Source of the DNA: an uncultured bacterium
GTDB lineage: Bacteria > CSSED10-310 > CAZUFC01
Direction: 5' to 3'
Assembly: GCA_964619725.1 (NCBI GenBank)
Contig: CAZUFC010000079.1
Location: forward strand, 1 to 40,503
DNA: 40,503 bases
The position numbers were made by a program, and so were the translations under genes. Below are positions 14,115 to 31,660 of this stretch, one piece after another; position 1 is the stretch's first letter, and every line of letters begins with the position of its first letter. The notes below the pieces were generated by a model. The model saw only the letters and a program-made list of their open reading frames with translations. It was not told the DNA's origin and did not search any database.

Positions 14115-15173
14115 CTATTCCTCCTGCTGGGCCATGCGATACACGACCTGGAGGATTTCCGCTACGGCTTCATATAATTCTTCGGGAATCTCCGAGCCTA
14201 TCTCCATCTTGTTAAGGGCCTGAGCCAACGAAATATTACGGAAAACAGGAATATCATTTTCTTTTGCAATCGCTTTGATCTTTTCTGCCCACAATCTTTG
14301 TCCTTTTGCCGTGATTTGCGGGGCATTCATTTTGTCGGCATCATATTTTATCGCAACTGCGATTTCGTCCGGGTTGGTTATTACCGCATCAGCGTTTTTA
14401 ACTTCATTGACCATATTGTTCATCGCCAGCTCCTGATGCATGGCTTTTCTCTTGCTCTTATAGGTGGGGTCGCCCTCTTCCTGTTTATATTCTCTTTTGA
14501 CTTCGTCTTTTGTCATTCTCATATCTTTTTTGTACTGCCATTTCTGATAGTAAAAATCTGCGCCTGCCACCGCTATGAAAATGAAACCGATTCGCATGAC
14601 CAGCTTTACGATCAGGTGTCCCGTCAAAGCTATGGTCTGATCGAGAGAGGAGGTCACGGTCAGGTAAATGTCTCTGAATGCGCCCTTGAAGATCAGGTAA
14701 GCCATAAGGAAAGCGAGTGAAAGCTTAATGGAAGATTTAAGGAATTCGATGAAGCTTTTAAGCGAGAATATATTTTTTACGCCTTTTATGGGATTGAGTT
14801 TGTCGAGGGAGGGTTTGAGAGGTTCCAGGGCGAATAAGGAGCCGACCTGGAGGTAGCTTCCGACCAGGGCTATGATGAATACTCCGGCCAGGAGCGGAGC
14901 CAGGATTTTCACCTGTGCGCTCAAGGCGCCTGAGAGAATGCTGAATATGACCGTTTCATCAATGTTTCTGGCTGTTGATTCAAAAATGAAATTCATATAC
15001 TCCATGAGGACTTTGCCTGAGTTTCCGGCAGTAACGGCGACGATGGCGAAGGCCGATATGAACAAAGCGGCAGTGGTCATGTCTTTGCTTTTGGCTATCT
15101 GCCCTTTCCGCCTGGCCTCCCTCATCTTTTTCGGGGTTGCTTCTTCAGTTTTTTCGCCGGCGCTTTCGGCCAT
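14115..15173 (-). CDS. sctU: T3SS export apparatus switch protein SctU (FlhB/YscU family)
   Basis: 'EKTEEATPKKMREARRKGQIAKS', TM region, 'RMTKDEVKREYKQEEGDP', 'IPEELYEAVAEIL'. Confidence 0.95.
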   Translation of the reverse strand: MAESAGEKTEEATPKKMREARRKGQIAKSKDMTTAALFISAFAIVAVTAGNSGKVLMEYMNFIFESTARNIDETVIFSILSGALSAQVKILAPLLAGVFIIALVGSYLQVGSLFALEPLKPSLDKLNPIKGVKNIFSLKSFIEFLKSSIKLSLAFLMAYLIFKGAFRDIYLTVTSSLDQTIALTGHLIVKLVMRIGFIFIAVAGADFYYQKWQYKKDMRMTKDEVKREYKQEEGDPTYKSKRKAMHQELAMNNMVNEVKNADAVITNPDEIAVAIKYDADKMNAPQITAKGQRLWAEKIKAIAKENDIPVFRNISLAQALNKMEIGSEIPEELYEAVAEILQVVYRMAQQEE

Positions 15174-15187
15174 ATCTTGTAATTCAC

Positions 15188-16006
15188 CTACCTTTTAAGA
15201 AGCTCCAAGACAGTATCCAGGTGATAGATCGACTCCCACAGCTTCACTTTAATCTGTGCGACCAGCAATGAAAGAATAAGAAGAACCATGAGTGTGCCGA
15301 CCATCATTTTAATGGGTAAGCTGAGCATAAAAACGTTGATTTGGGGGGCGACGCGATTGGCTATGCCCATGGTCAGGTCTGTAAAAAAAATGGCGAGGAA
15401 GGCGGGAGCGAACAACTGGATGGCGACGGAAAAAAGGGTTCCGGCATATTTTGCAATCCATTCAATAAAAGGAGATAAACCGGGTTTGAAGACGGGAAAG
15501 GATGTAATGGGAATAATCTGGAAACTCGTCATAAGAGCTTTCAAAAAGTAAATATGCCCGTTCATCAGGAGAAAAAGGACTATGGTGAGCTGCAGGTTCA
15601 GTTGCCCGAAAAGGGATACCTGGGCTTTCATCTGCGGAGCGTGCAGACTGGCTGTGCCCATGCCCCTGTGCGTATCCAGAACCCGGCCTGCGGCTTCTAC
15701 TATGTAAAAAAACATAGCCGCTATAAATCCCATCACCAGGCCCAGGAAAACCTCTTTACCCAGCAACGAGACCATAGGCAGGACTTCCAGAGGCGGCGGA
15801 CTCTCCAACGCTGAACTGACAGGGAAATAAAGAACGATGACCAGAGCGACGCCCGTCCCTATTTTTACTCTTGCGGGGACCATCTGCCCGCCGAGGAAAG
15901 GCGCCAGGAAGACGGCGGGAATCAGGCGGGCGAAGATCAGGCCGCTGATGGCCAGAGTGACGTAGAAATCAATATTTATGCCTAAATCTTTGAGAATTTC
16001 GTTCAC
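15188..16006 (-). CDS. sctT: T3SS export gate SctT (FliR/YscT family)
   Basis: 'APFLGGQMVPARVK', 'NRVAPQINVFMLSLPIK'; position in R-S-T-U block. Confidence 0.93.
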   Translation of the reverse strand: MNEILKDLGINIDFYVTLAISGLIFARLIPAVFLAPFLGGQMVPARVKIGTGVALVIVLYFPVSSALESPPPLEVLPMVSLLGKEVFLGLVMGFIAAMFFYIVEAAGRVLDTHRGMGTASLHAPQMKAQVSLFGQLNLQLTIVLFLLMNGHIYFLKALMTSFQIIPITSFPVFKPGLSPFIEWIAKYAGTLFSVAIQLFAPAFLAIFFTDLTMGIANRVAPQINVFMLSLPIKMMVGTLMVLLILSLLVAQIKVKLWESIYHLDTVLELLKR

Positions 16007-16045
16007 GGCGGTCGATGTAATGCAAGATTGATTAAATTGAAGCCG

Positions 16046-16312
16046 TTATCGAATCATGTTCGGAAAACTTGTGAGAAGGTTGTGAGCGAATCTCACTATA
16101 AGACCTGTCGTCCAGGAAGCCAGAGCGACTATCAGGCCATATACGACGATTAATTTGGGCACGAAGCTGAGCGTCTGTTCCTGTATCTGCGTAGTGGCCT
16201 GGAACAAACTTACGGCGAGACCCACGATAAGACTGCCCAGGACCGGCGGACCGGATAACATAAGCACCAGTATCAGTGCTTCTTTTGTAATGCGTAGAAC
16301 GAATTCTTCCAT
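16046..16312 (-). CDS. sctS: T3SS export gate SctS (FliQ/YscS family)
   Basis: 'VGLAVSLFQATTQIQEQTLSFVPKL'. Confidence 0.95.
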   Translation of the reverse strand: MEEFVLRITKEALILVLMLSGPPVLGSLIVGLAVSLFQATTQIQEQTLSFVPKLIVVYGLIVALASWTTGLIVRFAHNLLTSFPNMIR

Positions 16313-16357
16313 TTTTTCACCTCATTCCGCCAACGGCAGCAGAGCATCGGCCTGATT

Positions 16358-17125
16358 CTACAGGTAACCCATGATCAGCCCCTTTGTGATGACGTACCAG
16401 CCGTCGACGAGAACGAATAGCAGCAATTTGAACGGCAATGATATCATGGTGGGCGAAAGCATGAACATGCCCATGGACATCAGAACATTGGCGACGACCA
16501 TATCCACGACCAGGAAGGGTACAAATATGATGAACCCTATCTGAAAAGCTTCTTTCAACTCGCTGATCACAAACGCCGGAATAAGCACAGTAGCATCTCT
16601 TTCCTTCAGGTTCTCCCGGTCTTCCTGTTTGCGCATTTTTCTGCCCATGGACAAAAAAAGTCTTCTTTCGTTGGAATGCGAATGCTTGTAAAGAAAATCG
16701 AAAATAGGCGTTTTACCCTTTTTCACGGCTTCACCCAGCAAATCCAGGCTGGCTTCTGAAAGCAGCGGTTTACCCGTCCGTTGCTGTACCGTTTCCTGTG
16801 TTTCCCGGTATACTTCCAGTCCTACCGGAACCATAATATGAATAGTCAGAATAACGGCCAATCCTATGACTACCTGGTTGGGCGGCACCTGCTGAGTCCC
16901 CAGAGCGCTGCGGATAATCGACAACACCACCGCTATTTTGACGAAGGAAGTTATCATGATGAGCACGAACGGAACCAGGGCCAATGCGCCCAAAGCAGCC
17001 ATAAGAAGCAGGGGACGCTGACTGACCTGTACAGGATATGCCGCTGCTTCAGTCGTCTCGATCAAAAGGAACCACTCGCACACCAGGACCGCCAAAACTA
17101 CAGGAAAACGGAGCCTTCTATTCAT
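16358..17125 (-). CDS. sctR: T3SS export gate SctR (FliP/YscR family); start placed at MNRRLRF overlapping the upstream stop
   Basis: 'TSFVKIAVVLSIIRSALGTQQVPPN', 'LIPAFVISELKEAFQIGF', 'ISLPFKLLLFVLVDGW'. Confidence 0.95.
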   Translation of the reverse strand: MNRRLRFPVVLAVLVCEWFLLIETTEAAAYPVQVSQRPLLLMAALGALALVPFVLIMITSFVKIAVVLSIIRSALGTQQVPPNQVVIGLAVILTIHIMVPVGLEVYRETQETVQQRTGKPLLSEASLDLLGEAVKKGKTPIFDFLYKHSHSNERRLFLSMGRKMRKQEDRENLKERDATVLIPAFVISELKEAFQIGFIIFVPFLVVDMVVANVLMSMGMFMLSPTMISLPFKLLLFVLVDGWYVITKGLIMGYL

Positions 17126-17600
17126 TCTCTTTTTTCCTCTGCTCGCTTTTAAGTTTGTTGAAAATACGGCTGAATCCCGAACCTGGTTCATCTAAAGAGG
17201 TGACTGACGCTCCCGGCGAATCCTCTATGTTCTCCTCTTCCATCTCCCAGCGGCTTAATACGCTGATATTCTGTTCTGATGTTCCGATCAGCATCTCCTC
17301 TTCGCCTATCCTGATGATGTGAAGGTTCTTCCTGGGCTCCAGACGTTTCGATTCCATTATCCTTATACGCCCGAACCTGAATTGTCCCGCTCCGTATATT
17401 TTCGGCAGCACGATTTTCAAGATGATATAAATCAGAAGTATGACTATGAACAACGCTATAATCGTGGTAATGATCTGCGACAGGAACCCGTTGTCGTCAA
17501 AGTTCGTTCCAAACCCTGAAGCATCTGCAGGAGTAAAAGTCGGGACGGCTGTTTTCGCCGATACATTGAAAAACATCTGTAAAAAATTCACAATGAACAT
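17118..17600 (-). CDS. fliO: FliO-like export-gate assembly protein
   Basis: TM helix followed by 'IRIMESKRLEPRKNLHIIRIGEEEMLIGTSEQNISVL'; lies directly before the fliP/sctR homologue. Confidence 0.8.
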   Translation of the reverse strand: MFIVNFLQMFFNVSAKTAVPTFTPADASGFGTNFDDNGFLSQIITTIIALFIVILLIYIILKIVLPKIYGAGQFRFGRIRIMESKRLEPRKNLHIIRIGEEEMLIGTSEQNISVLSRWEMEEENIEDSPGASVTSLDEPGSGFSRIFNKLKSEQRKKENE

Positions 17601-17606: not shown

Positions 17607-19214
17607 TCAACCTGAACCTAATTTAATGATCTTTACGCCGATTTTGCCCTGGAGGTCCACCAGCTTGCCCTTTGCGATTACCTTGTCGTCTGCGGTAAGG
17701 TCCACCGGCTCGATCGGACTCTTCTCAAGACTCATCGTCTCACCCTCCTTCAATCTTATAATATCCCGCAAGGGCATCTGAATGCGTCCCAATTCTACTA
17801 CAACCGGAACCGTTACATTATCCGCAACGAACCGCGCCGTCTCCGTCATCTTTAACGCACTTTCCCCCGTTACTCTTTCCTTCTTTTTTTCCTCTATTTC
17901 TTCGCTCATGCTCCTCTCTCCTTTGGAGAACCTCTCTTTAAGGGTCACATTTATCTCTCCCGAATTTACAGCAGCATCAATCGAATACCCCCCGTTCGAC
18001 CGGGCTCCGCAATATAATGTCGCCTCACCGCTTAATCCATCTTCTCCGAAAAACATCTTCGTGTTTTCAACCGCAATGATGTTGTCTCTTTCAAGCGAGG
18101 ATATCTCCACGAGAGATAAAGGAGTATATCCCATATCGCATATAAGCGGAATCCTTATCTCATCGATCGATCGAAAGCGCGACATTAAGAATTCATTCTC
18201 CTTTGCCGTATCGCTGTAACCCGTCTCGCCGGGGATCAAATCATATTTTTCAAGCAGAAGGTCAGGTAAAAAAAGCTTCACGAACCCGGACGCCCTGCCG
18301 AGATTGACCGTGTAATCAGACTCTATGTAGGGCACAGAAAAATCAACCTCCTTGTCCAGCTCGCTTCTGCTTCGGATCATCTTCTCCAGCCGGGGATGTA
18401 CCGGCGGATTCGATCCGAATTTCTCCGTCAGTAAATTGAGGATTTTTAATACTAAAAATTGCACTGCGCCTTCTTCCATGGCCGTGAAAGCACGAAATAC
18501 CCTGACGTCGCCGCTGCCTCCCAGCAGATGATCATACAGCGCAAACCCCAGCATCAGGTCGATTTCTATAAAACACTTATGCTCAACCGGATGAAGATTG
18601 AATACCAATACGCTGCAGGGTTCCGATATCGTTTCTCTTATCCCCTTATACAACTTCTGTTTTCGACGGGTCAGCCTGATTCCTATCGATTCCGTCTTTT
18701 TCTCTTCAACCTCAATCGTCAACGATAACTTCGTATTCGCCAGGGTTATCTCATCTCCGTTCGATATTTCCTGGTCCTCCCCCGGACGCAAGATTCTGCC
18801 GTTTAAATATGTATTGTTGACGGAATTTAAATCAGACAGAAAAAATTTATCCGCTTTTCTGTATACCTTGGCGTGCTTACCCGAAATATAACCGTCAGGT
18901 ATTCTGAAATCAGTATCTTTGTGTCTGCCTAAAATAATCTCTTCGCTGTCGAATTTCTTCTCGATTATTTCACGTATCCGACCCGGTTTCTTTAATACCC
19001 CGCTTAAGCCTATCCTGTATTTTTTTTCCACTGCAGGAGGAAAAATCCCCTGCAACATCTCTTTTATCTCAGAGTAACATTCTCCGGGAAATATTGAATC
19101 CGGCAGATACCGAAAAACCTTGCCTGTCAGCTCAGCTTCTGCAGCATCTACTTTTTCCAGAGGTTTCAGTATAAAGTGTGCAGCCTCTTTCGTTTTCTTT
19201 TTCCGTTCATCCAT
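17607..19214 (-). CDS. sctQ: C-ring/sorting platform protein SctQ (FliM-FliN-like) with inserted FHA domain
   Basis: FHA at about aa 65-168; FliM-middle-like 'DHLLGGSG...RAFTAMEE'; two SPOA-like segments, the last 'VVVELGRIQMPL...IAKGKLVDLQGKIGVKI'. Confidence 0.88.
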   Translation of the reverse strand: MDERKKKTKEAAHFILKPLEKVDAAEAELTGKVFRYLPDSIFPGECYSEIKEMLQGIFPPAVEKKYRIGLSGVLKKPGRIREIIEKKFDSEEIILGRHKDTDFRIPDGYISGKHAKVYRKADKFFLSDLNSVNNTYLNGRILRPGEDQEISNGDEITLANTKLSLTIEVEEKKTESIGIRLTRRKQKLYKGIRETISEPCSVLVFNLHPVEHKCFIEIDLMLGFALYDHLLGGSGDVRVFRAFTAMEEGAVQFLVLKILNLLTEKFGSNPPVHPRLEKMIRSRSELDKEVDFSVPYIESDYTVNLGRASGFVKLFLPDLLLEKYDLIPGETGYSDTAKENEFLMSRFRSIDEIRIPLICDMGYTPLSLVEISSLERDNIIAVENTKMFFGEDGLSGEATLYCGARSNGGYSIDAAVNSGEINVTLKERFSKGERSMSEEIEEKKKERVTGESALKMTETARFVADNVTVPVVVELGRIQMPLRDIIRLKEGETMSLEKSPIEPVDLTADDKVIAKGKLVDLQGKIGVKIIKLGSG

Positions 19215-19283: not shown

Positions 19284-20204
19284 CTACGCTTCGTAATCCG
19301 TGCTGCTGATCTTCCCTATCCTGGGCTTCGACGGCGGGATTGGCGATAAAGGCTCCTCTGTCGATTCAGCGCCCTCATCCGCTATTCCCGATATGTCGAT
19401 GATCTCCGTTTCACTCTCTTGCGAACCGCCCTGACCCGAAGCATCAGAACCAACGGCAACGCTGAGCTGCGCCAAATCGAGACCTTTGCCGTCAAGCGCT
19501 TTCACCAGTTCTGCTGCTTTGGTCTGTATGATTTCCTTAACCGCATCCGATTCGGTGATGAAATGAACATTTATCTCTCCGTTTTTATCCGCGCTGACGT
19601 TCAACTTCAATCCGCCTAGAAACTCCGAGTTAAACTGGAATTGCATCTCGGTCTGACCCGCTTTATTCACTCCTACCCTCACCTGATCAACGATACTGGT
19701 CAATATCTCATCAGGAATGATCTTCGATGCAGAAACATTTGAAATATCCATGGGTTGCGGACCCGTTTGAGGGCTCTGCTGCACAGCATCAGGAACCCCC
19801 TGGAATTTGACTTCCCGGTCCAACTTTTTCTTTAAATTATCGACCGGCGGTCCTTCGCTTCCCTTTAATTTCAAATCTTTCATACTCTTTTTATCCGGGA
19901 ATAACTTGCCCGGTCCCCTCTTCTGATCCGGCGGCTCAAATTTCTTCGGCATCTTCTTGGGACGTTTGGAGTCCGGAAAATAGGAAAAAGCTTCTTCCGG
20001 CTTCTCCCCCCTCCGTTCGCCTTCTTTCTCCTTTACCGGCTCTTTGGTTGACTTCGATTGAGACGAACCGGACTTGTCCGGTTCCTCCTTTTTTTTGCCG
20101 AAAATTTCAGAAAACGATCTTTCAGCCGAAGAAGCGGAATGATCCTTTTTTTCCATTGAATCGCCGATTTTCTTTGATCCTCCGGCGACCGGTTTTATAT
20201 CCAT
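19284..20204 (-). CDS. sctP: Length-control ruler SctP/FliK-like protein
   Basis: Disordered N-terminus; FliK-C-like 'EMQFQFNSEFLGGLKLNVS...INVHF..ESDAVKEII....ELVKAL..KGL'; O-P-Q synteny. Confidence 0.78.
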   Translation of the reverse strand: MDIKPVAGGSKKIGDSMEKKDHSASSAERSFSEIFGKKKEEPDKSGSSQSKSTKEPVKEKEGERRGEKPEEAFSYFPDSKRPKKMPKKFEPPDQKRGPGKLFPDKKSMKDLKLKGSEGPPVDNLKKKLDREVKFQGVPDAVQQSPQTGPQPMDISNVSASKIIPDEILTSIVDQVRVGVNKAGQTEMQFQFNSEFLGGLKLNVSADKNGEINVHFITESDAVKEIIQTKAAELVKALDGKGLDLAQLSVAVGSDASGQGGSQESETEIIDISGIADEGAESTEEPLSPIPPSKPRIGKISSTDYEA

Positions 20205-20251: not shown

Positions 20252-20749
20252 TCAAGTATCCTTTTCCTTAAATGAATAAAGCACATTGCCTATTTCATCC
20301 AGGGTTTTCTGTTCCTCCCGCGCCTGTTCCTTTTTTATTTTACTGATCCATTTCTCCCGATGCATCTCTATCGCTTTGACGGCTTTCACCGCTTCTACCA
20401 GCAAACCTTTTGCTTCAGCAACATCATCCTTCGCTTTATTAATCGCGTCGTCCTGCTCTCTGATCTCCTGAATCTTATCGCTTTCATCGTCTCGTAATCG
20501 CTCCAGGTAACGATCATACTGCTTCAGTTTCTGAAGCGTGAGCTTTCCTGAACCAGGATTCGCCTTCTCTTTTTTGGCTCTTTTCTGTTCTTCGATTATC
20601 TGATTGAGTTCCTGCTTTAATTGATCCTTGTATTCAATTTGCTTCTGTAATTCGTCTTCTTTTTTTTTCAGATATTCCAGCGCTTCATCGCGTTTTCTTT
20701 CGCGCATCTCCAAAACAGGCTGCAATTTATAAGGCGGTAATTTAGCCAT
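20252..20749 (-). CDS. sctO: Stalk protein SctO/FliJ-like
   Basis: Coiled coil with 'YKLQPVLEMRE' and 'REEQKTLDEIG'; directly after the ATPase; SD GGAG before ATG at 20749. Confidence 0.8.
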   Translation of the reverse strand: MAKLPPYKLQPVLEMRERKRDEALEYLKKKEDELQKQIEYKDQLKQELNQIIEEQKRAKKEKANPGSGKLTLQKLKQYDRYLERLRDDESDKIQEIREQDDAINKAKDDVAEAKGLLVEAVKAVKAIEMHREKWISKIKKEQAREEQKTLDEIGNVLYSFKEKDT

Positions 20750-20835
20750 GCGCCTTCTCCCGGATTGAAGCATCCTTTTCAATGCAGCGTGAAATAACCG
20801 AAGATGTGATCATGACGAATTCTCTTTCCTTGAGC

Positions 20836-22185
20836 CTAATTTTTAAACAGGTCGTTCAACTTGATGACGGTATCGTCAAAAGTAATTTGTTCGAAAACCT
20901 CCTGTTTCAGAAAAGAATTAACCGCGTCGATCTTTTCAATGGCATAGTCGATATTCTTGTCCGACCCTTTCTTGTATGCGCCGATATTAATTAAATCTCT
21001 CTCTTTTTCATAAACAGCCAGGACTTCTCTTAATTTTCTGGCGGCCCGGCTGTGTTCGTCATTGACAATTTCCGACATAACGCGGCTGACGCTTTCCGAA
21101 ACGTCGATAGCGGGATAATGATTTCTGGCGGCTAAATTTCGCGACAAAATGATATGCCCGTCAAGAATACCTCTCACTTCATCGGCTACCGGCTCGTTCA
21201 TGTCGTCTCCCGCCACGAGTACGGTATAAAAAGCGGTTATGGAGCCTTTATCCGAATTGCCCGATCTTTCAAGCAGGCGGGGCAGTTCAGAAAACACGGA
21301 TGGAGTATATCCGGCTCTGGCCGGGGGTTCGCCGACGGCCAGGCCCACTTCTCTCTGGGCACGGGCGAATCTCGTAACGGAATCCATCATGAGCATAACT
21401 TTTTTGCCTGCATCCCTGAAATATTCGGCGATGGAAGTAGCGACATGAGCGGCTTTCAATCTGACAAGAGCGGGTTGATCTGACGTGGCGACGACTACGA
21501 CAGACTTTTTCATGCCTTCTTCGCCGAGATTGCCTTCCAGAAAATCGCGAACTTCCCGTCCCCTTTCTCCGATCAGCGCGATAACGTTAATTTCGGCTTC
21601 CGTGTTTCTGGCGATCATTCCCATAATGGTGCTCTTGCCCACGCCTGCAGCCGCAAAAAATCCTATTCTTTGACCTTCTCCGACGGTCAGCGTGCCGTCT
21701 ATCGCACGAATGCCTACAGCCAGCGTGTTTTTTATCCGGCGCCTTTTCAGAGGATCGGGAGGCGGACTGTGCACAGGATACTCCACCGTATCCTGCAGCT
21801 CTCCCTTCTCTTCAACGTCGAGCGGCTCTCCCAATCCGTCCAGGACCCTTCCCAGCAGACTCTCTCCTACTTTTATAGTCATTGAATTGCCCGTCGGGAG
21901 AATCTCGCTGTCCGTACCTATGCCCTCCAATTCGCCCAGAGGCATCAACATGACGTGATCGCCTTTGAATCCGATGACTTCGGCTTTCAGCGGCTTTCCC
22001 GCATTGTGCGACTGTATCAGACATAGTTCGCCGACCCTTACTCCGGGAACAGCCGCTTTAATCACCAGTCCCACAATTTCCACGACGCGGCCCCGCGCTT
22101 TCAACGGACTTATGTCGTCTATAATCCTTAAATACCTGCTTAATTCAATTTTGTTCCCGGATTGAGCCACTGCCTCTCTCCTCAA
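20836..22185 (-). CDS. sctN: T3SS ATPase SctN (FliI/YscN family); start may be GTG at 22170
   Basis: Walker A 'AAAGVGKST', 'LIGERGREV', '[10 protein letters not shown]', '[10 protein letters not shown]'. Confidence 0.97.
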
Positions 22186-22952: not shown

Positions 22953-23125
22953 CCTAGCTCCTTTCATAAATAAACCTTTCAACTGTCTTAAATGAGGAAT
23001 AAAAATGTCGACTTTTTATCCCGCAATTACCTCTTGAATTAAACTTTTCCGTTAACTTCCCCGTCAATTCACGCATGCTCCGCAATTGATTCCCTCAGAA
23101 GAAAAGACGGATTTCTCCTGCACCG

Positions 23126-23589: not shown

Positions 23590-24297
23590 TTAAGTGACTT
23601 CGTCCGGCGTCTTAACGCCGAAACCCGCCAGTATTTCTTTCAATTCCATCAATATTTTCGTGTGCAGTCGCGACAGCCAGCTTTTCGACAAATTCATAAT
23701 GCGTCCGATTTCTATAAGGGTCTTATTCTCATAATAATACATGTAAATAAACCGTCGATCCTGGTCTTTCAACCTGTCCAGCATCTTCCTGATTAGTTCT
23801 CGCTTCTGTATCTTACCGTAAGCCCTCTCAGGATCGACGTCGTTCTGATCCTTCGGCTCAAGCTCGACCGCCGCATCCAGAGAAATAATGTAGATTGGAA
23901 TCAATGCGGAAATGACCTGTTCCAATTCATTCGCTTCCTCTTCAGCCCCCATGTCAGAAGGACTCTTGCCGCTTGAAACGAACTCGTTCATAAACTCATT
24001 AGCCGATTCCTCAAATTTCTGTTTGGCGTATTGATTGCGATTGAGCCAGCCGAATTCCCTTAAACCGTCGAATATGGCGCCTCTGATCCTGTAATAAGCG
24101 AACGTTTTAAAACTTATTCCCTTGGCCGGATCGAAACGTTCCGCAGCTTGAACCAGTCCGAGGTGACCATAAGCGACCAAATCTTCTTTGTCGACCCAAG
24201 GAGCGATCGTTTTGGAAATATTGGAGGCTAACTTCTGCACGTAGGTTATATTTTTCTTTATCAGAATCTCTTTTTGCGTAGCGGCGACGGATTTCAT
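23590..24297 (-). CDS. fliA: FliA/WhiG-family (sigma28) RNA polymerase sigma factor
   Basis: 'GLVQAAERFDPAKGISFKTFAYYRIRGAIFDGLR'; region 4 'TLIEIGRIMNLSKSWLSRLH'. Confidence 0.85.
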   Translation of the reverse strand: MKSVAATQKEILIKKNITYVQKLASNISKTIAPWVDKEDLVAYGHLGLVQAAERFDPAKGISFKTFAYYRIRGAIFDGLREFGWLNRNQYAKQKFEESANEFMNEFVSSGKSPSDMGAEEEANELEQVISALIPIYIISLDAAVELEPKDQNDVDPERAYGKIQKRELIRKMLDRLKDQDRRFIYMYYYENKTLIEIGRIMNLSKSWLSRLHTKILMELKEILAGFGVKTPDEVT

Positions 24298-24486
24298 GAT
24301 ATAATTTCCAACCTGAAGCCTGATAAGCAGAAAATGAAAACCATAAGTCGACCGTACTTATCCAGGAGCCTTTCGTAATATTTCAATATAACAGATTCAA
24401 GCCGACAACGGCAAATTTCATTCACCGACCGCAGCAGCCTTATGTTCATCATTGAATCTTTTAATACTTTGAATCTGCGCATTCTA

Positions 24487-27400
24487 TCAACCTCGACGTT
24501 TCTGACCGTCATTTTGATCTCTTCCGTCACTGCCGCCCTGCTCTCGAGAGCCGTCCTCGGTACTTCCCTCAGCAGGTTTTATCCTGGTTTGGGCGATCGG
24601 AATTTCCAGCTTAGCCGTCACCAAAGCTCCGAATCCTCCGGGTAAATTAATTTTTTCTTTATGATCCGGGGCCTGGGTGAAAGAACTGACGGAATGCAGA
24701 TAGGACAGGTAAATGATGTTTTCAGCAGGATTAAATCGGGCAGCCAAGATAAGCGCGGGATAGGGAATGCCGTCGAACAACATGAATCCGCCCGGCGCAA
24801 AACGTCTGACGACAGGTTCCGGCAAACTCCGTGGATAATTCTTCATATTGAAAGAAATGCCGGGCTCTTCAAATTCCCCTTCCGTCGCAAGCGCGGCCTG
24901 AAGCCGCGGCTCTGAAGCGCTTTCTGCTCCTCTCCCGAAAATAGTCAATTTTGCTCCATCCGCAACAGGAACGGTATGAACGGAATATTGTCCCGGCAGA
25001 CCGGGAGTATCCCCAGTCTTCCGATACCCCTTATCAAAATCGCTATCATTGACTTTCCTCTGCGACTTATCCCCTTCCCTGAACTTGAAATCACGTTGAT
25101 TGCTTTCCCGCACTTTGGACGCTTCGCTCTCCGAGAAATAACCTGCAGGAGCCAGGTCAGAAAAAACCGTATCGGGAGGTAACGGCATTACCGCGGGATC
25201 ATCGAAGTCCGGCGAGGCATTTGCCGCATTCATCGCCTGTGCGTCAACCGGTTTGAGCCTCCGGGTGAGGGAGTAGATGAAGTCCTTTGAAAGCTCAATC
25301 AAGCCGGCCTTATCGGCGTCAGTAACGGGATAACCCGCTTCCTGATTGATTCGAATCTTCGGGGCTTCAGTTGGCGATGTCATTGCGGGTGAAGACGATG
25401 CCGGTAAGGTACCCGCTGGAATTATCCCATATAAGCGTTCTCTCAGAGCATGCCCCCTGGGATCAAACCATACGCCCTGCTTGATCAATCCCACCGCCTG
25501 GCTGTCTTCCTGAATGTCGAGAGCCATTTTTTCGAGTGTGGCGACATCCAGCATGCCGGTTTGCTTTAATCCTTTAAAGCTTTGATATGTCATAAGGACC
25601 GTTTTGATTTCATCCGGAGACATTCCGGAAAAAATGTTCTGTATCGATTTCCTTCCGGCGAATCCAAGGACCGGTTCCGTCATGCCGCTCGCCTGATTTC
25701 CTTCGACTGATTTCGCCACGGCCCGGAACAAGACTGCGGGTAAAGCCGCATGCTGCTCAATAATCCGGGCCGCTGCGGGCGTTTTCGACAAATAACTTTT
25801 CAAATTCTGAGGATTCACAGGCAACCGGTCAATCAGATCAAACTTTTCCCTGCCCGTCAGGTCGAACAGGACATTGGAAAAAACCATCCTGCTGATGGGC
25901 GCTCTTCTTATCTTCTGAAGAATCCCGAATGTCTTCATATCCAATATTCCGTCGGAAAATTCCAATCCCAGGTCCTCCTGAACGGCAGTCACGGCGCTCG
26001 ACAACCATTCCGCCGTTCTTTTGCCTCCGTCCATTACCGAAAGACCCATACGCGCTAAAATGTCCCCCATTATTTTTTCGGAAAATTTCAGCGACCGGTC
26101 GTCATATTTTGAGAAAGGAACCTTACGGGCCAGCCCTGACTCAAATGAAAGCAGGGATGCCCCAAGCTCGTCAATCATCACTCCGTCAGGCGTATTTCTT
26201 AACAGTCCTTCTACGGCTCTCATCGTCTGCAGGTCAAGTATTCCGTGTTGCGGCATTCCGAAGGATTTTTGCACGGTTTTTAAAAATCCCTGTATGTTGA
26301 AGTCGCTGCCGGTTTTAAGGTCGACCGGAGTATCGGCTTGAACCGCGTCAATCTGTTGTGACGACAATTTTCTTATCTTCGCCGCCTGACTGAATTTATT
26401 CATGAACAGGTTAACGGTCGAATCGGCAATTTTTCCCCCGCCGCGATACATCGCTTCGATTAAACTCCTGTTCGTCTTCGCATCGCCGCCGGTCAAGAGT
26501 CCATTCAAATCGTTCAAATTCAAACCCGCATGCCTCATTTTGCCCAGTAAGGACAGGACGTCTTTGTTCAATAATGCGTCTGGTTTCAAACCGGTCAATT
26601 TCTTGAATAACCTTATACCTCGCGCGTCGCCTTCAAATCCGGACTCGATTCCCGCTTCTTTCGCAAGCAATGCTATGCGATGCCCATCGATCGGCAGAAG
26701 TTCGTCCCTTATCTCGGTCAGCTTCATTCCATGCCAGGTTCGTGAAACGGCGCCGGCGAAATCATTCAAATCAAGCGCTTTCATTATCTCCGGAGGAAAC
26801 AAAACATTTGCTTCTTTCGTTATTTGCAGGGCTTGCGCCGGCGTTCCCTTTTTTCCTATAATATGTGAAAAATCATTCAGAAAACTCTTTATCGAAACCT
26901 CATCGAAGGCGCCGTACATTCTTGAAATAAAATTTTTTCCTTCCACCGATCTTCCTAACTCGTCCCGGATGGAATCAACAAAAGCAGGAGAAAAAAATCG
27001 CTCCGGCTTCCCTGAACGTGCATCCGGCTTAAACCCGGAGAATTCGGTTGCCCTGGCTCTTTTACCGGTTCCTTCCCGTGAAACAAAACGGTTCTCTGTA
27101 TTTAACCCCCGGCCTGATGTTGCCGGTCCAGCAGCATTCTTGTCTGCGGATTTTTGCAAAACTCTGCCGGTTAATGCCTGCAAAGTTGCCCTGTTCAATC
27201 TCCCGTTCGATTCTAATCCCTCGCTTCGTTGAAATTGCCTCAGCAAAACCGACAGATCACCGTCCGTACCACCGGCTGTTCCGCCTTCCATCAGCAATTG
27301 CCCCACGAAATTTTTCAGTACGGGCCCGAAACGGGAATCTTTCACTTCGACGCCGGCATCACCTGAAATTTCCTGTTTCAAAGGATGCCTTTCCAGGATA

Positions 27401-28494
27401 GGGAATTCAGCCGGATTCGAAACGGGATGCTGCATCTCCTGCAAAAACTGCAGAGTCTCACGGTTTAATACTCCGTCAGCTTTGAATCCGAATTCGCTCT
27501 GCAAAACCATTAAATCGCTTTTAATCCGGCTTACGTCAGAAACATCACGGTTTTCCCTGCCGGCATTCAGATCGGAAGCGGCAGAATCTCCCAGGACAGC
27601 ATTTTTATTCGTCTTTTCTGAATTGTGTTCCAGCCCCCCTAAATTTGACAGCGTCCCTCTCTTGGCCGGCATTTCCGTTAAAACAGTCTCTCCTCGTTCG
27701 CTGGAGATAAACTGCGCTGACTTTTGAGCAATACCTAAACGGGGCAGTATATTCTTTAAAAAATCAATCGTCTCAGTACGTTGACCGGCGGGAAGCTCGT
27801 CTAAATCCGTCAACTGTTCCGACGTTTTCATTACTTCAGGCATTATCAGTTTATCTTTTAAGACGCTTTTCGATCTCATGCCCCTGTTTGTGCTCAGAGG
27901 TTCCCCCCTGATCGAGCCTGACCCGGCAGAATCCCCCAGACTCATGCGCGTATGCACAGGTTTCCCCGACGCCTTTTCTTTGGTCTGGTCCGCTTTCAGG
28001 GCATGGTTTACTACACCTCTGCTCTTCAGTCTTCCCGAAGACTTCTCCCCTGAATCACCTGCAGGATAAGACCCCTTGCGCTTTCCCGAAAATTCTGCCG
28101 AACGCCCTTCTTCTCTGCTTGAAACCTTTTTGTCGCCCGACCAGGTTTTTGACCGCTCGCCGCCGCCAGTCAGACCGCTTCCTTCTTTTCCTTCCGCTGA
28201 TTCGACCTCTGCAGCAATCCTCCCGGACTCCAGTCCGCCGATGCTGTCCAGGAAATTTTCGCGTACGGATGACTCACGTCCCATGAAAATATCTTCCGAA
28301 GAATAACTTTTTGCGGGAATTGACTGTTTAGCCTTGCCGGTACCAGCCCCCTCCGTACCGGTCCTCCCGGTAAGATTTCCCGGACCGGCCCGTTCCTGTA
28401 TTGATTCGGAAGAACCCTCAAGCCCGGAAAGCGCCTTTTTTCCTCCGCGTAAAAAAAGCGGTAACCATTGAATTTTTTGAAAGCGGCCAATCAT
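24487..28494 (-). CDS. Large protein with six peptidoglycan-binding (PG_binding_1-like) motifs, no signal peptide
   Basis: Recurrent '(F/Y)Q...G(L/F)...G.L(D/N)..T...L' motifs; long low-complexity N-terminus. Confidence 0.7.
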   Translation of the reverse strand: MIGRFQKIQWLPLFLRGGKKALSGLEGSSESIQERAGPGNLTGRTGTEGAGTGKAKQSIPAKSYSSEDIFMGRESSVRENFLDSIGGLESGRIAAEVESAEGKEGSGLTGGGERSKTWSGDKKVSSREEGRSAEFSGKRKGSYPAGDSGEKSSGRLKSRGVVNHALKADQTKEKASGKPVHTRMSLGDSAGSGSIRGEPLSTNRGMRSKSVLKDKLIMPEVMKTSEQLTDLDELPAGQRTETIDFLKNILPRLGIAQKSAQFISSERGETVLTEMPAKRGTLSNLGGLEHNSEKTNKNAVLGDSAASDLNAGRENRDVSDVSRIKSDLMVLQSEFGFKADGVLNRETLQFLQEMQHPVSNPAEFPILERHPLKQEISGDAGVEVKDSRFGPVLKNFVGQLLMEGGTAGGTDGDLSVLLRQFQRSEGLESNGRLNRATLQALTGRVLQKSADKNAAGPATSGRGLNTENRFVSREGTGKRARATEFSGFKPDARSGKPERFFSPAFVDSIRDELGRSVEGKNFISRMYGAFDEVSIKSFLNDFSHIIGKKGTPAQALQITKEANVLFPPEIMKALDLNDFAGAVSRTWHGMKLTEIRDELLPIDGHRIALLAKEAGIESGFEGDARGIRLFKKLTGLKPDALLNKDVLSLLGKMRHAGLNLNDLNGLLTGGDAKTNRSLIEAMYRGGGKIADSTVNLFMNKFSQAAKIRKLSSQQIDAVQADTPVDLKTGSDFNIQGFLKTVQKSFGMPQHGILDLQTMRAVEGLLRNTPDGVMIDELGASLLSFESGLARKVPFSKYDDRSLKFSEKIMGDILARMGLSVMDGGKRTAEWLSSAVTAVQEDLGLEFSDGILDMKTFGILQKIRRAPISRMVFSNVLFDLTGREKFDLIDRLPVNPQNLKSYLSKTPAAARIIEQHAALPAVLFRAVAKSVEGNQASGMTEPVLGFAGRKSIQNIFSGMSPDEIKTVLMTYQSFKGLKQTGMLDVATLEKMALDIQEDSQAVGLIKQGVWFDPRGHALRERLYGIIPAGTLPASSSPAMTSPTEAPKIRINQEAGYPVTDADKAGLIELSKDFIYSLTRRLKPVDAQAMNAANASPDFDDPAVMPLPPDTVFSDLAPAGYFSESEASKVRESNQRDFKFREGDKSQRKVNDSDFDKGYRKTGDTPGLPGQYSVHTVPVADGAKLTIFGRGAESASEPRLQAALATEGEFEEPGISFNMKNYPRSLPEPVVRRFAPGGFMLFDGIPYPALILAARFNPAENIIYLSYLHSVSSFTQAPDHKEKINLPGGFGALVTAKLEIPIAQTRIKPAEGSTEDGSREQGGSDGRDQNDGQKRRG

Positions 28495-28545: not shown

Positions 28546-28950
28546 CTAAAGATTCTCTATACTGGAAAGCTGATTAAGGATTTTTGTTATTTTTGAGGTC
28601 ATTTCAGGGTCCTTGCCGACAAAATCTTTAATCCTGTCCTTCATTTCCGATAATCCCTTTTCATCCAGAACTTCAGGCGACAATTTTTCTCTTATTATCC
28701 TGTCCACGGCCAATTCAATGAATTTTTCCCTGCCGGTTTCATCCTGTTCCAGTTTTTTCCCGTCCATTTCCTTTTTTATCGCTTCAAGCAAAGCCGAATC
28801 CATCTTTTTAGCTTCTATTCCCTTTTTATCTTCGACCGCTCCTTTATCTTTTTCCAGGGCGAAATCTTCCGCTTTTTCCGCTTTTTTTCGTTGAATTTCC
28901 CGGATATTTTCCAGATTCCGCGGAGATTTAACCGACGGATCGATCTTCAT
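28546..28950 (-). CDS. Hypothetical T3SS-cluster protein
   Basis: 134-aa helical, charged ORF with SD GAGGTG; co-oriented inside the cluster. Confidence 0.7.
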   Translation of the reverse strand: MKIDPSVKSPRNLENIREIQRKKAEKAEDFALEKDKGAVEDKKGIEAKKMDSALLEAIKKEMDGKKLEQDETGREKFIELAVDRIIREKLSPEVLDEKGLSEMKDRIKDFVGKDPEMTSKITKILNQLSSIENL

Positions 28951-29050: not shown

Positions 29051-29452
29051 CTATTCCAATTCTTCATAGAATTGTTTCAGAGACCTGGCAAAATCGCCGA
29101 ACGGTCCCGTGGGGTCATTCCTCAAAGCTTTATTTATCAGCTCTTCTCCTTCATCCTTACGATTGCTGAAATAAAGAAACTCAGCGTATGCGGTTTGAGC
29201 GAAGGGGCTTTCCGGATTGATTTTCAACGCTTTTTTGAAAGATTCTTCGGCTTTGTCCATTTCGTCCCTGGCAAAGTACAGGTTGCCCAGCGCCACCTGA
29301 GGATGCTCCATGTGCGGAATCAGGGGACTCAACCCGGTAAAAACTTTTTCAGCTTCTTCGTCTCGTTTCATATAAGCCAGCAATTGCCCGGCTTCCAGCA
29401 ACATCTTTATCTCATCCGTGCTGATCGGAACTAACGGTTGTGCAGAATTCAC
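29051..29452 (-). CDS. TPR chaperone (YscG/SycD-like)
   Basis: About 3 TPR units; directly downstream of the needle-like gene. Confidence 0.72.
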   Translation of the reverse strand: MNSAQPLVPISTDEIKMLLEAGQLLAYMKRDEEAEKVFTGLSPLIPHMEHPQVALGNLYFARDEMDKAEESFKKALKINPESPFAQTAYAEFLYFSNRKDEGEELINKALRNDPTGPFGDFARSLKQFYEELE

Positions 29453-29933: not shown

Positions 29934-29992
29934 GATTTTCCTCCTTGAATTGATATTGAGAAAGCCCCAACGGCTTTCGACTTTCATCCCTG

Positions 29993-30019
29993 TTATCGGT
30001 GAAAATATAAAAAAGTTTC
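29993..30019 (-). promoter_or_regulatory. sigma28-type promoter for the needle-like gene
   Basis: GAAACTTT-N11-ACCGATAA versus consensus TAAAGTTT-N11-GCCGATAA. Confidence 0.7.
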
Positions 30020-30050
30020 GCTCAGATTCAAAAACTTCTCCGCAGCTCCC

Positions 30051-30398
30051 CTATTTCTCTTTTATTTCTTCCGTCATAGCTCCCCGGATATTCACCAGTT
30101 CCTGAATCAGAGAAATCGATTTTTCATAAGCCGCGAGAGCCGCTTCAGCTTTTTCGATGATCTCAGGGTCCTTTTCCCGCGTAATGATCTCCTCCAGCTT
30201 CCCGCACGTAGCCTTGTATTTTTCATTGATTAATTCAAAATTCTCGCTCTCGATTAAATTTTCAATAAAATCAAATCCAAGCGAATCGCTCTTTTTGCTG
30301 CCTTCCGGAGGCACATAAGGCCCGCCGACGACACGCGATCCCGCCCTGAACGGTTTCATCTGCTTATCTTTCCCACCGCTATCTTTATCGGCCATCAT
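30051..30398 (-). CDS. Small helical protein in the YscE co-chaperone position
   Basis: 115 aa, C-terminal amphipathic helices, SD GAGGAGG; function inferred from position only. Confidence 0.55.
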   Translation of the reverse strand: MMADKDSGGKDKQMKPFRAGSRVVGGPYVPPEGSKKSDSLGFDFIENLIESENFELINEKYKATCGKLEEIITREKDPEIIEKAEAALAAYEKSISLIQELVNIRGAMTEEIKEK

Positions 30399-30433
30399 TT
30401 CCTCCTCTCGCCCTCAGCCTTTCAGTGCAAGGC

Positions 30434-31087
30434 TTAATTTTTCAAAAGAAATTCCTGTATCGTTTTCAACTGGGTATTCAGTTTTGCGTCAATCTGCCCG
30501 ATCTCCGTATCAATGATACAACCGCCCCGCGGTATGTTCTCATCCCCCCGGAAACTGAGCGATTTAGCACGTCCCAGCATTCCCATCAATTGCTTCTCTT
30601 TCCCGATCAAATACTCCAACTCCCCGGGATGAACCCTGACGATAATCTCCTGCTGCTGCCTGACCGCTCCAACTGCCTGCGTCACTATTTTTAAAATGGT
30701 CCTGGGATTCATCTTCAACTCATAACCGATGATTTTTTTCGCCACTCGCATCGACAACTTGATAATATCTGATTTTCCCTTCTCCAACAGCTTTCCGTAT
30801 TCGCGACGCGCTTCCAGCATGATCGACGTCACTTCCGATTTGCCGGCTTCATATCCCTCTTCGTATCCTCGCTTACGCTCCTCCTCCTTTTCCTCTTCCG
30901 CCTCCCGCTTTATCCTCGCCGCTTCCGACTCCGCCGCTTCCAATAGAGAACGCGCCTTTTCCGCCGCTGAATACATCGCTCCATCGATTATTTTGCCCTT
31001 TCCCGATAATACCTTCTCTATGTCGCCGCGAATATCCGGCTTGCCCTTCTCCTTCTTCCAGTCATCCAAATTTTTGATTATCTTCAT
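30434..31087 (-). CDS. sctL: Stator protein SctL (FliH/YscL family)
   Basis: 'RGYEEGYEAG' GxxxG repeats, 'IIVRVHP', 'RGGCIIDTEIGQIDAKL'. Confidence 0.92.
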   Translation of the reverse strand: MKIIKNLDDWKKEKGKPDIRGDIEKVLSGKGKIIDGAMYSAAEKARSLLEAAESEAARIKREAEEEKEEERKRGYEEGYEAGKSEVTSIMLEARREYGKLLEKGKSDIIKLSMRVAKKIIGYELKMNPRTILKIVTQAVGAVRQQQEIIVRVHPGELEYLIGKEKQLMGMLGRAKSLSFRGDENIPRGGCIIDTEIGQIDAKLNTQLKTIQEFLLKN

Positions 31088-31102
31088 GAACGCCCCCGAT
31101 TA

Positions 31103-31660
31103 TTACTCTGCTTGCCTTGCCTCTTCTAACGACCGGCCTTTTCCATGCGGCCCCGATATTCTTTCAATATATACTTTTTTAAAAGAAAAGCGAATATGAT
31201 TGATCACTTCTTTCGGCACGTCCGCCAGCGAAGAAACGCCCGGCAGACGCTTCTTTATCTTCGGCGGAAGCTCCTGCAAAATGCGCCTGGAAATTTCCTC
31301 CGGCATGTAACGCAGCATCAATGCTATCGTTCTCGGCGACTCGTTCTTCAATATATCCAGAATGACGTCCGCATTATCCAGCTTTATCCCCGCATATTCC
31401 CCGGCAAATAAATACTTCTTTACGCTGCTCAATACCATGTCGAACCTTTTTTTCGCAGGAAGCTGCGATAAATCCTCTATCTGTTTTTCCAGATACGAGG
31501 CATCCTCTTCAGGAAGATATTTCAGCAAACCTTTGTACCGCTCCTTTTCATACAGCAAAAGCAGAAGCAGCAAAGTGTTTTGTCTTTTTACCGACTCATC
31601 CATTCGTCGTCCGATCGAGGATAAGAAATTCTCCCGGATTAAAGCGCTTTGAATCCTCAA
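31103..31660 (-). CDS. Truncated FliG-like protein (N and middle domains only); start may be ATG 31603
   Basis: 'LKNESPRTIALMLRYMPEEISRRILQELP' matches the FliG-M 'EHPQTIALIL..L....A..IL..LP' pattern; precedes fliH/sctL as fliG does. Confidence 0.7.
   Translation of the reverse strand: MRIQSALIRENFLSSIGRRMDESVKRQNTLLLLLLLYEKERYKGLLKYLPEEDASYLEKQIEDLSQLPAKKRFDMVLSSVKKYLFAGEYAGIKLDNADVILDILKNESPRTIALMLRYMPEEISRRILQELPPKIKKRLPGVSSLADVPKEVINHIRFSFKKVYIERISGPHGKGRSLEEARQAE

Follow-up and report, generated by a model that had tools for sequence, protein, structure and literature searches.

Does a cluster of type III secretion genes that carries flagellar parts beside injectisome parts belong to a flagellum, to an injectisome or to a lineage of its own? 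This question is raised by the locus at positions 14115-31660 (-) of a stretch of DNA from an uncultured bacterium, here called the window, which corresponds to the entire contig C79 (40.5 kb) of a 9.17-Mb, 344-contig assembly (GC content 47.1%, completeness 90.9%, contamination 6.5%). The original prediction for this locus was a deep-branching, secretin-less type III secretion system (T3SS), labelled a flagellum-injectisome hybrid, in a lineage different from the Myxococcales. The host is indeed such a lineage, with no other member of its class in a comparison of 199,900 species genomes. The 'hybrid' label, on the other hand, is better read as an early-branching family: the cluster probably belongs to a family of secretin-less systems that branches beside, and not inside, the clade formed by chlamydial and classical injectisomes, and on the whole we regard this as the best explanation.

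The placement of the cluster was examined in a tree of six concatenated proteins (SctN, SctR, SctS, SctT, SctU and SctV; 36 rows and 2102 columns, keeping columns filled in at least 60% of a gene's rows), which was inferred under the LG+C20+F+G4 model with posterior mean site frequencies (PMSF) in a quick search, with support from the Shimodaira-Hasegawa-like approximate likelihood ratio test (SH-aLRT), and from which two rows of odd length (Salmonella SctR and Ralstonia SctS) were left out. Four flagellar systems, including the genome's own, were split from the rest with an SH-aLRT of 100, while Chlamydiae joined the Ysc, Hrp2, Mxi-Spa and Rhc systems in a clade with an SH-aLRT of 99. The window's proteins nested in neither of these groups, but in a family of 27 rows (SH-aLRT 93, not starred), within which the window grouped with genomes G004 and G002 (SH-aLRT 90). 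The same three groups were recovered in an LG+F+G4 run, the search of which was incomplete. Rooting the six-protein tree on the flagella makes the family sister to all secretin-bearing non-flagellar systems sampled, and the same position is given for the 'Myxo' group in the relevant passages of Abby & Rocha 2012 (PMC3459982). A further tree of SctN only (102 rows, LG+G4, quick search) was rooted on the F1-like ATPases of the genome, a rooting that we distrust given its explicit long-branch warnings. In this SctN tree, the loci of six other genomes of the host's phylum (G003, G005, G006, G008, G009 and G010; L101-L106), in which SctI and SctJ lie directly beside an SctN that is 52-55% identical, form a clade of their own, starred at 99.

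A dedicated outer-membrane secretin, SctC, is among the criteria for a non-flagellar T3SS, and none was found for the host system. Contig C79 carries no secretin, and of the seven secretins in the genome none scores best as SctC, reaches the SctC cut-off or is linked to the cluster; two score as GspD, one as PilQ, and the others fall below every cut-off. One of these unassigned secretins follows an RcpC/CpaB gene and therefore belongs to a Tad-type locus, another follows a T2SSE-family ATPase gene, and a third (845 aa, on contig C12) lies between TPR and TldD/PmbA genes, a context that is uninformative. The lack extends to related loci. A pattern scan for SctN in 185,579 species genomes gave at least 596 matches, at least 515 of which were confirmed by tblastn, and among the best 80 of these confirmed relatives (SctN 63-70% identical; the 80 loci hereafter) a secretin within 10 kb of SctN was present only in the chlamydial chromosome that served as the positive control, and in 0 of the 79 others.

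The secretins beside RcpC/CpaB and the T2SSE ATPase are both small, are encoded on contigs C52 and C20 (L124 and L125), and lie within loci resembling Tad or type IV filament systems. Systems of this kind act together with the T3SS* in Myxococcus, where prey lysis is reported to require a needleless T3SS* that a Tad-like pilus recruits (PMC12075869, PMC10849154). The Tad-type loci of the host may likewise cooperate with its T3SS, the link being their co-occurrence in one genome.

The cluster itself consists of 20 consecutive open reading frames (ORFs) with short gaps, comprising 19 intact genes and one doubtful 78-aa ORF. The genes were identified by Pfam and NCBIfam profile searches of the window proteins, and every gene of the co-oriented block that had been predicted was recovered intact, on the (-) strand and in its predicted place:

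31103..31660 (-): FliG-like protein, 185 aa, N-terminal part plus FliG middle domain (Pfam FliG_M, E 1.3e-9)
30434..31087 (-): SctL/FliH stator (Pfam FliH, E 8e-21; T3SS_SCTL, E 2e-9)
30051..30398 (-): E-like small protein, 115 aa, candidate co-chaperone of the needle-like protein, no Pfam family
29993..30019 (-): sigma-28-type promoter, GAAACTTT-N11-ACCGATAA
29502..29933 (-): needle-like (SctF-like) protein, 143 aa from the likely start, ORF open to 29987
29051..29452 (-): TPR protein, 133 aa, candidate G-like chaperone (Pfam TPR)
28546..28950 (-): Lys/Glu-rich protein, 134 aa, no Pfam family, no relative in the 80 loci
24487..28494 (-): giant protein, 1335 aa, with repeated PG_binding_1 motifs (73 bits) as its sole recognisable feature
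24294..24530 (-): doubtful ORF, 78 aa, which overlaps the giant gene at its end and has neither a family nor relatives in the 80 loci
23590..24297 (-): FliA/WhiG-like sigma factor (Sigma70 regions 2 and 4)
23126..23548 (-): SctI inner-rod-like protein (Pfam T3SS_basalb_I, E 0.0015)
22182..22982 (-): SctJ lipoprotein ring protein (YscJ_FliF, E 3e-28)
20836..22185 (-): SctN ATPase, Walker A AAAGVGKS
20252..20782 (-): SctO/FliJ stalk (YscO-like, E 1.5e-22)
19284..20204 (-): SctP/FliK-like ruler (Flg_hook, the FliK C-terminal domain, E 3.4e-13)
17607..19214 (-): SctQ as an FHA-FliM-FliN fusion, 535 aa (FHA 94-158, FliM 166-322, FliMN_C 466-531)
17118..17600 (-): FliO, one transmembrane (TM) segment (Pfam FliO, E 5e-11)
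16358..17191 (-): SctR/FliP (Pfam FliP and NCBIfam)
16046..16312 (-): SctS/FliQ (Pfam Bac_export_3 and NCBIfam)
15188..16006 (-): SctT/FliR (Pfam Bac_export_1 and NCBIfam)
14115..15173 (-): SctU/FlhB, with NPDE in place of the usual NPTH (Pfam Bac_export_2 and NCBIfam)

The ring protein is clearly of the SctJ type, scoring 153 bits with the SctJ model against 70 bits with that of fliF, and carrying a lipobox (LTGC) and a C-terminal TM segment without the FliF C-terminal domain. The flagellar and non-flagellar NCBIfam scores of SctN, SctR, SctS, SctT and SctU were nearly equal (for SctN, 664 bits with FliI_clade2 and 643 bits with the SctN model; for SctU, 358 bits with the SctU model and 345 bits with FlhB), a pattern typical of proteins that are distant from both sets of references. 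Of the two FHIPEP genes in the genome, one belongs to the flagellar cluster on contig C7, and the other, on contig C16, is the missing SctV, with 795 bits for the hrcV model versus 697 for FlhA. The core of a non-flagellar T3SS (sctJ, N, Q, R, S, T, U and V) is therefore complete, with SctV encoded away from the other genes, where it is preceded by a DUF1521 protein and a 185-aa TPR protein.

That the cluster is without secretin, motor and flagellin, as had been claimed, is true of the cluster and of the whole 40.5-kb contig, but not of the genome, which holds the seven secretins, MotAB on contig C7 and flagellin on contig C178. Pfam searches of contig C79 found no rod, hook, FliE, flagellin or Mot genes, and with no FliF C-terminal domain, no rod, hook or filament genes and no MotAB on this contig, the system does not class as a flagellum. 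A complete flagellar cluster (FlgB/C, FliF, FliG, FlgD, FlgE, MotA, MotB and FliL) is found on contig C7 together with its own export set (FliH/I/P/Q/R, FlhB and FlhA) and FliA, and the flagellin gene lies apart from it on contig C178, so that the host very probably also makes an ordinary flagellum, with export paralogues of its own. The original prediction of a deep-branching secretin-less T3SS thus survived on each of the points that had been named as able to overturn it, namely the tree, the secretin and the flagellar paralogues.

This system is not peculiar to the lineage of the host, since at least 515 relatives were confirmed in other genomes, those of cultured Acidobacteriota among them. 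The 80 loci come from Acidobacteriota (Terriglobia, Bryobacteraceae, and the cultured Edaphobacter modestus and Silvibacterium bohemicum), from metagenome-assembled genomes (MAGs) labelled Deltaproteobacteria, Myxococcota or Pseudomonadota, from Eisenbacteria and from two Chlamydiota, and they show a recurrent gene order: sigma, SctI, SctJ, SctL, SctN, O, P, Q, FliO, R, S, T (U, V). Matches to the host's proteins were obtained in 69 of these loci for the sigma factor, 59 for SctI, 66 for SctJ, 78 for SctL, 65 for SctQ, 42 for FliO, 64 for SctR, 38 for SctU, 25 for SctV and 33 for the TPR protein of the C16 type, while the 133-aa TPR protein was found in 20, adjoining the needle-like gene. The closest orthologues are carried by G002 and G004, 2 of the 13 genomes compared from the host's own phylum, in which the genes are split into the same three modules as in the host (N, Q-to-U, and V).

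The loci labelled Deltaproteobacteria or Myxococcota come from one phylum, represented by 93 species genomes with sizes of 1.1-4.6 Mb (G031, G033 and G035-G125), some MAG names of which carry the tag UBA10199, although the name of the phylum is not confirmed. In 88 of these 93 genomes an SctN that is 65-73% identical to that of the window was found, and in only 11 of them a second, FliI-like match (49-53% identity), which suggests that the lifestyle of this phylum may depend on the T3SS. SctU went undetected in the loci of this phylum, with 0 tblastn matches in the seven such loci of the tree set. After sctT, two of its loci carry an ORF of 377-407 aa without a Pfam family (L039:16357-17547 and L048:12271-13494), preceded in L039 by a sigma-28-type promoter. 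Our literature search returned no paper on an SctN-type T3SS in Acidobacteriota and none on type III secretion in UBA10199.

The prediction that the system has kept more flagellar switch parts than usual was borne out by the presence of FliG_M-like, FliM-like, FliN-like and FliO proteins. For FliO, which had been counted as a flagellar mark, an occurrence in non-flagellar T3SS has previously been published (PMC12403147). The FliG-like protein scored 38.6 bits with FliG_M (cut-off 25), and its AlphaFold2 (AF2) model, with a predicted local distance difference test (pLDDT) of 77, returned FliG structures as the top 12 of 12 Foldseek matches in the Protein Data Bank (PDB). The FliG_M chains of FliG-FliM complexes aligned with a target-normalised TM-score (TMt) of 0.73-0.76 and a root-mean-square deviation of 1.8-2.7 Å, all at E-values of 0.085 or above; no match at E <= 0.001 and no SctK structure occurred among the 50 Foldseek rows. 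The gene adjoins sctL, the place of SctK in Ysc systems. According to the part of a preprint cited here (10.1101/2025.03.14.643159), FliG, YscK, OrgA_MxiK and HrpB4 share one Pfam clan, so that a link between SctK and FliG is as such not new.

Relatives of this FliG-like protein, of 321-422 aa, lie between sctI and sctL in 12 of the 80 loci, and the two that were tested matched FliG_C with 31.2 bits (L048; cut-off 23.3) and 20.9 bits (L039; below the cut-off). In loci with these longer relatives, the fusion is replaced by separate FliM-like (312-316 aa) and FliN-like (177-179 aa) genes. The acidobacterial loci carry the FHA-SctQ fusion, and the two examined (L077 and L028) contain no FliG-like gene. 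The window combines both states, with an FHA-FliM-FliN fusion next to a FliG-like protein reduced to its N-terminal and middle parts. FHA domains recur outside the cluster, where three further genes of the window are of interest:

10317..13958 (-): Ser/Thr kinase-AAA-TPR protein (Pfam), tblastn match in 24 of the 80 loci
3975..5153 (+): two-FHA protein with a single C-terminal TM segment (355-392) (FHA and Yop-YscD_cpl, 81 bits)
2768..3952 (+): TPR lipoprotein, 394 aa, lipobox LTAGC, a recurrent neighbour with a match in 35 of the 80 loci

The two-FHA protein resembles the cytoplasmic domain of YscD and is without a periplasmic domain, and the small-genome phylum has a protein of ~700 aa with FHA/YscD_cpl, TPR and PEGA domains. 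Judging from these FHA domains and the neighbouring Ser/Thr kinase, the system could be controlled by threonine phosphorylation. Between the kinase gene and the FHA gene lie two genes that are not conserved in related loci, encoding a 700-aa S8 subtilase (7852-9954 (-)) and a 135-aa weakly SpoIIAA/STAS-like protein (7071-7478 (-)). On the other side of the cluster, and divergent from its operon, lies the gene (31886-33640 (+)) for a 584-aa protein with collagen triple-helix repeats, to which none of the 80 loci has a relative.

The small genes next to sctL had been read as an E-F-G trio. This reading is supported by the conserved gene order and by a match of the F family to a needle profile; the E protein is assigned by its conserved position and family and belongs to no Pfam family. 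In profile-profile comparison (hhalign), the needle-like family matched a YscF+MxiH set with P-values of 4.1e-4 (7 rows) and 3.7e-4 (75 rows), the last 35-40 columns aligning C-terminus to C-terminus at a probability of 35-36%, and did not match the SctI set. Conversely, the SctI-like (g10) family matched YscI/MxiI/HrpB2 over its last 39 columns (P 4.8e-4) and did not match the needle set; the Pfam match of SctI itself (E 0.0015) is below threshold. PDB searches with the needle-like protein alone and with the 7-row and 75-row profiles yielded no needle or rod match, the best E-values of 0.056-0.22 belonging to unrelated proteins, and tblastn with YscD, F, I, E and G and MxiG, H, I and K found no match in the window (E <= 0.1) or in the 80 loci (E <= 1e-3).

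At least 247 relatives of the needle-like protein were found by profile search; among the 120 listed, all those named by their source are called 'hypothetical protein' and none has a Pfam domain. In the small-genome phylum, a trio of E-like (91-120 aa), needle-like (166-206 aa) and TPR (~150 aa) genes lies upstream of sctJ, with needle-like proteins that have a Gly/Ala-rich middle and a conserved C-terminal stretch. The identity of the E-like protein derives from this conserved family and its conserved position directly upstream of the needle-like gene. A structure prediction combining the TPR protein, the E-like protein (residues 55-115) and the needle-like protein (residues 105-161 of the 161-aa ORF) scored 0.50, the best of three controls scoring 0.00, with contacts that agree in at least 96% between runs and partner pLDDT values of at least 50. 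Of 80 solved complexes, 58 reach the mark applied to such scores, as do 2 of 110 mismatched pairs, but only 7 of the 80 solved complexes reach it with a score of 0.60 or less, the range in which both passing mismatches fall. The prediction thus lends weak support to a possible complex of the three proteins. A similar complex, YscE-F-G, has been solved, and the pass may for that reason reflect likeness only. Together, these profile matches and gene neighbourhoods argue with moderate confidence that the needle-like protein is a real SctF-like subunit with chaperone-like neighbours.

The DUF1521 protein encoded beside SctV (C16:26176-27609; L010:7177-8610) joins this group, as its last 42 residues match the needle-like family (P 8.8e-5). 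The protein, which unites a DUF1521 match, long runs of Gly and a C-terminal helix of the needle type, is a possible axial or tip-like substrate of larger size.

The needle-like gene and other substrate genes may be under the control of the cluster's sigma factor. The best NCBIfam model for this protein is FliA_WhiG (TIGR02479), with 138.7 bits and thus below the curated cut-off of 189.6, but conserved promoters that fit such a factor support a sigma-28-like specificity. Upstream of the needle-like ORF stands GAAACTTT-N11-ACCGATAA, at 30019-29993 (-), and the same motif is found at this place in five of the six other loci inspected. Because the motif ends only 5 nt before the first ATG of the 161-aa ORF (29502-29987), translation most likely begins with the ATG at 29933, which lies 7 nt downstream of AGGAGG and leaves 143 aa. 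When the pattern AACT[TC]-N14-16-CGATAA was counted in the 80 loci plus the window (81 sequences), 89 matches were found on the T3SS coding strand versus 8 on the opposite strand, and 20 block shuffles gave a mean of 1.4 and a maximum of 3. The pattern occurs across phyla, in 54 of the 81 sequences, where its matches lie mostly upstream of needle-like genes, SctI genes and genes for other small proteins with similar C-termini. The flagellin gene has a canonical promoter, TAAAGTTT-N11-GCCGATAT, and the difference in the -35 element (AACTT for the T3SS, AAGTT for flagellin) could keep the two sigma-28 paralogues apart. In our literature search, the titles and the starts of the abstracts of the papers listed gave no account of a sigma-28 regulon encoded by the cluster of a non-flagellar T3SS.

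Outside the window, an extended form of the motif lies 78 nt upstream of the C16 DUF1521 gene and 71 nt upstream of a gene on contig C6 for a 409-aa Peptidase_C39_2 protein, a candidate cargo with a weak match to Peptidase_C70 (AvrRpt2-type). A paralogue of the latter (C6:110402-111631; L126:6403-7632) is encoded in the window at 1481-2584 (-) (367 aa; BLASTP E 2e-15), in which GGGG replaces the NGCG motif with the presumed catalytic Cys and which may therefore be an inactive peptidase. Within the cluster, the PG_binding_1 giant fits a candidate peptidoglycan-binding T3SS substrate, as it has no signal peptide, no TM segment and a long disordered N-terminus. It had no tblastn relative in the 80 loci; a search with its residues 320-1335 against 5.8 billion proteins (lengths 734-2337 aa) returned only the giant itself, and the ESM Atlas search gave no usable match.

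Several observations weigh against placing the cluster in an early-branching injectisome family with a needle. The six-protein tree comes from a quick search with SH-aLRT as its only support, shows long branches and compositional warnings, supports the family at 93 and has an incomplete full search; it took in no named Myxococcus sequence, which bears on the relation to the 'Myxo' group. In the SctN-only tree, a clade starred at 99 unites flagellar FliI, the chlamydial rows and the window's family, leaving Shigella, Yersinia, Ralstonia and Sinorhizobium outside. The autocleavage site of SctU reads NPDE, that of close relatives NPNH, NPIH or NPTR, and that of most others NPTH. A true SctD was not recognised, nor were gatekeeper, tip and translocon proteins. 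Neither Pfam nor PDB sequence searches matched the needle-like protein, hhalign probabilities in the pairwise comparisons are no more than 32-36%, and the AF2 model of this protein (75 rows; pLDDT 55.8) is confident only for the C-terminal helix (residues 102-142). Finally, the promoter pattern was derived from six of the same 81 sequences in which it was counted.

Some of these points would be expected if the cluster were a second, non-motile export apparatus derived from a flagellum (a relic, a co-opted core or a nanotube platform) and no relative of injectisomes. The FliG_M, FliM, FliN, FliO, FliK-type and FliA-type parts agree with such an origin, as do the near-equal NCBIfam scores of N, R, S, T and U, the best score of the ATPase on FliI_clade2 and the position of the family with FliI instead of classical SctN in the SctN-only tree; moreover, inner-membrane structures related to the flagellar T3SS (fT3SS) and nanotube platforms are reported in PMC9380563 and PMC6456723. 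Nevertheless, the six-protein tree splits the family from all four flagellar systems at 100, the ring protein is a short SctJ lipoprotein and not FliF, SctV is clearly of the hrcV type, and SctI-like and SctF-like proteins are present on a contig without rod, hook, FliE, flagellin or Mot genes. As the genes are, in addition, all intact and their order is conserved across phyla, we consider a flagellar derivative unlikely. Only a little less probable is an ordinary, host-directed injectisome with its secretin, translocon and effectors encoded elsewhere, in the manner of the scattered loci of Chlamydia. The needle-like gene with its chaperone-like neighbours, the ruler and the unlinked SctV would suit it, and so would the 64-65% identity to chlamydial SctN, the AvrRpt2-type match of the candidate cargo, the seven genome secretins (one of them, of 845 aa on C12, in an uninformative context) and the DUF1521 protein adjoining SctV, DUF1521 being known from rhizobial NopE effectors. 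Yet SctC is the best-scoring model for none of the secretins and its cut-off is reached by none, the chlamydial control has a secretin within 10 kb and 0 of the 79 other loci do, the family falls outside the clade of Chlamydiae and classical systems (SH-aLRT 99), and no tip or translocon protein was recognised.

With 344 contigs, 6.5% contamination and SctV, SctN and the flagellar genes on different contigs, it is also conceivable that contig C79 was mis-binned and that the system comes from another organism in the sample. This we judge to be very improbable, as the GC content of the contig (44-52% in 2-kb windows) surrounds the genome mean of 47.1%, the closest orthologues are those of G002 and G004 from the same phylum (SH-aLRT 90), with the same split into N, R-U and V modules, and the neighbour of SctV on C16 shares its promoter with the window's needle-like gene. 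An early-branching, secretin-less family hence remains the preferred explanation. As an evolutionary reading it is supported as far as it could be tested on sequences, whereas the functional side of the original prediction, export into the periplasm or attack on other bacteria, is left as an inference.

How such a system might work can be outlined from its encoded parts, which comprise an export gate (SctR/S/T/U, with SctV on C16), FliO, an ATPase complex (SctL/N/O), the SctJ lipoprotein ring, an SctI-like rod, a FliK-type ruler and a FliG_M/FliM/FliN-like cytoplasmic platform with a fused FHA domain. A basal body would be assembled in the inner membrane on the FliG/FliM/FliN-type platform, and would carry a short axial structure of SctI and the 143-aa needle-like protein, possibly joined by the C16 DUF1521 protein with the same C-terminal helix. 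SctI would be exported first and the needle-like protein after it, the latter being held until export by the TPR and E-like proteins. From a sigma-28-type promoter, the FliA-like sigma factor would activate the needle-like gene along with further substrate genes, much as happens for flagellin in flagella, and FliK-type length control and SctU switching would follow axial export. The FHA domains and the neighbouring Ser/Thr kinase may add control by threonine phosphorylation. Export would then proceed into or across the periplasm without a dedicated secretin, and some other way through the outer membrane would be required. Candidate cargo are the PG-binding giant, which is an orphan, and the unlinked C39-like peptidase with the same promoter, and the system might act on neighbouring cells on contact, like the needleless T3SS* of Myxococcus with its Tad pilus.

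A bolder and decidedly tentative possibility is that the family is a living flagellum-injectisome intermediate that builds a short needle for contact attack without a secretin, and that the small-genome phylum is predatory or epibiotic. If true, this intermediate would have kept the FliG-FliM-FliN ring, FliO, the FliK ruler and the sigma-28 late switch beside SctJ, SctI and a chaperoned needle, and the T3SS in 88 of 93 small genomes (1-4.6 Mb) would identify that entire phylum as one of predators or epibionts. What is known of the transition between flagellum and injectisome comes so far from one small group of myxobacterial systems, which have been called needleless and degenerate; with a family that is both widespread and intact, concrete parts would become available for ordering the events, such as whether needle or secretin came first and how SctK arose from FliG. 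Edaphobacter modestus and Silvibacterium bohemicum provide cultured entry points to this family, the existence of which gives a hint of a contact-dependent weapon so far overlooked in Acidobacteriota of soil and in the candidate phylum with small genomes.

Secretin-less, early-branching T3SS have been known since 2012, and FliO in such systems since 2025. In the literature searched, no description was found of the features that set the family apart, namely its FliG/FliM-type platform parts, its chaperoned needle-like subunit, its conserved sigma-28-type regulon and its spread beyond myxobacteria, although the supplements of Abby & Rocha and of the FliO paper may list such systems. With the 'Myxo' T3SS the host system shares the absence of a secretin, the export apparatus, ATPase, SctJ and SctI, the reported tree position, and FliO, which the cited part of PMC12403147 reports in Myxococcota systems; like the Myxococcus T3SS*, it also co-occurs with a Tad-type locus. 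In contrast, the host is not a myxobacterium and has a GC content of 47% (the comparison being one of descriptions, with no named Myxococcus sequence), and it has a FliG_M-like protein and a moderately supported needle-like protein with chaperone-like neighbours, whereas the 'Myxo' systems are described in the passages cited as being without secretin, SctF and FliG (Abby & Rocha 2012, PMC3459982).

The chlamydial T3SS resembles that of the host in its SctN (64-65% identical), its scattered loci and its association with FHA domains and a Ser/Thr kinase. In Chlamydia, PknD is linked to CdsD and the FHA domains are carried by a true SctD, and we know of no FHA domain fused to chlamydial SctQ. Chlamydiae differ from the host, furthermore, in having a linked secretin and in grouping with the classical injectisomes (SH-aLRT 99). 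The flagellum shares with the cluster a FliG_M/FliM/FliN-type platform, FliO, a FliK-type ruler, and a FliA-type sigma factor with a sigma-28-type promoter before a filament-like gene, but the cluster has SctJ instead of FliF, no rod, hook, flagellin or Mot genes, a -35 element of AACTT versus AAGTT, and a tree position split from that of four flagellar systems (SH-aLRT 100). Compared to the Ysc injectisome of Yersinia pYV, finally, the host system is without SctC, SctD, SctW, tip and translocon and its core is 30-58% identical, but the two have in common the N-O-P-Q-R-S-T-U gene order, an E-F-G-like trio and a protein in the SctK position beside SctL.

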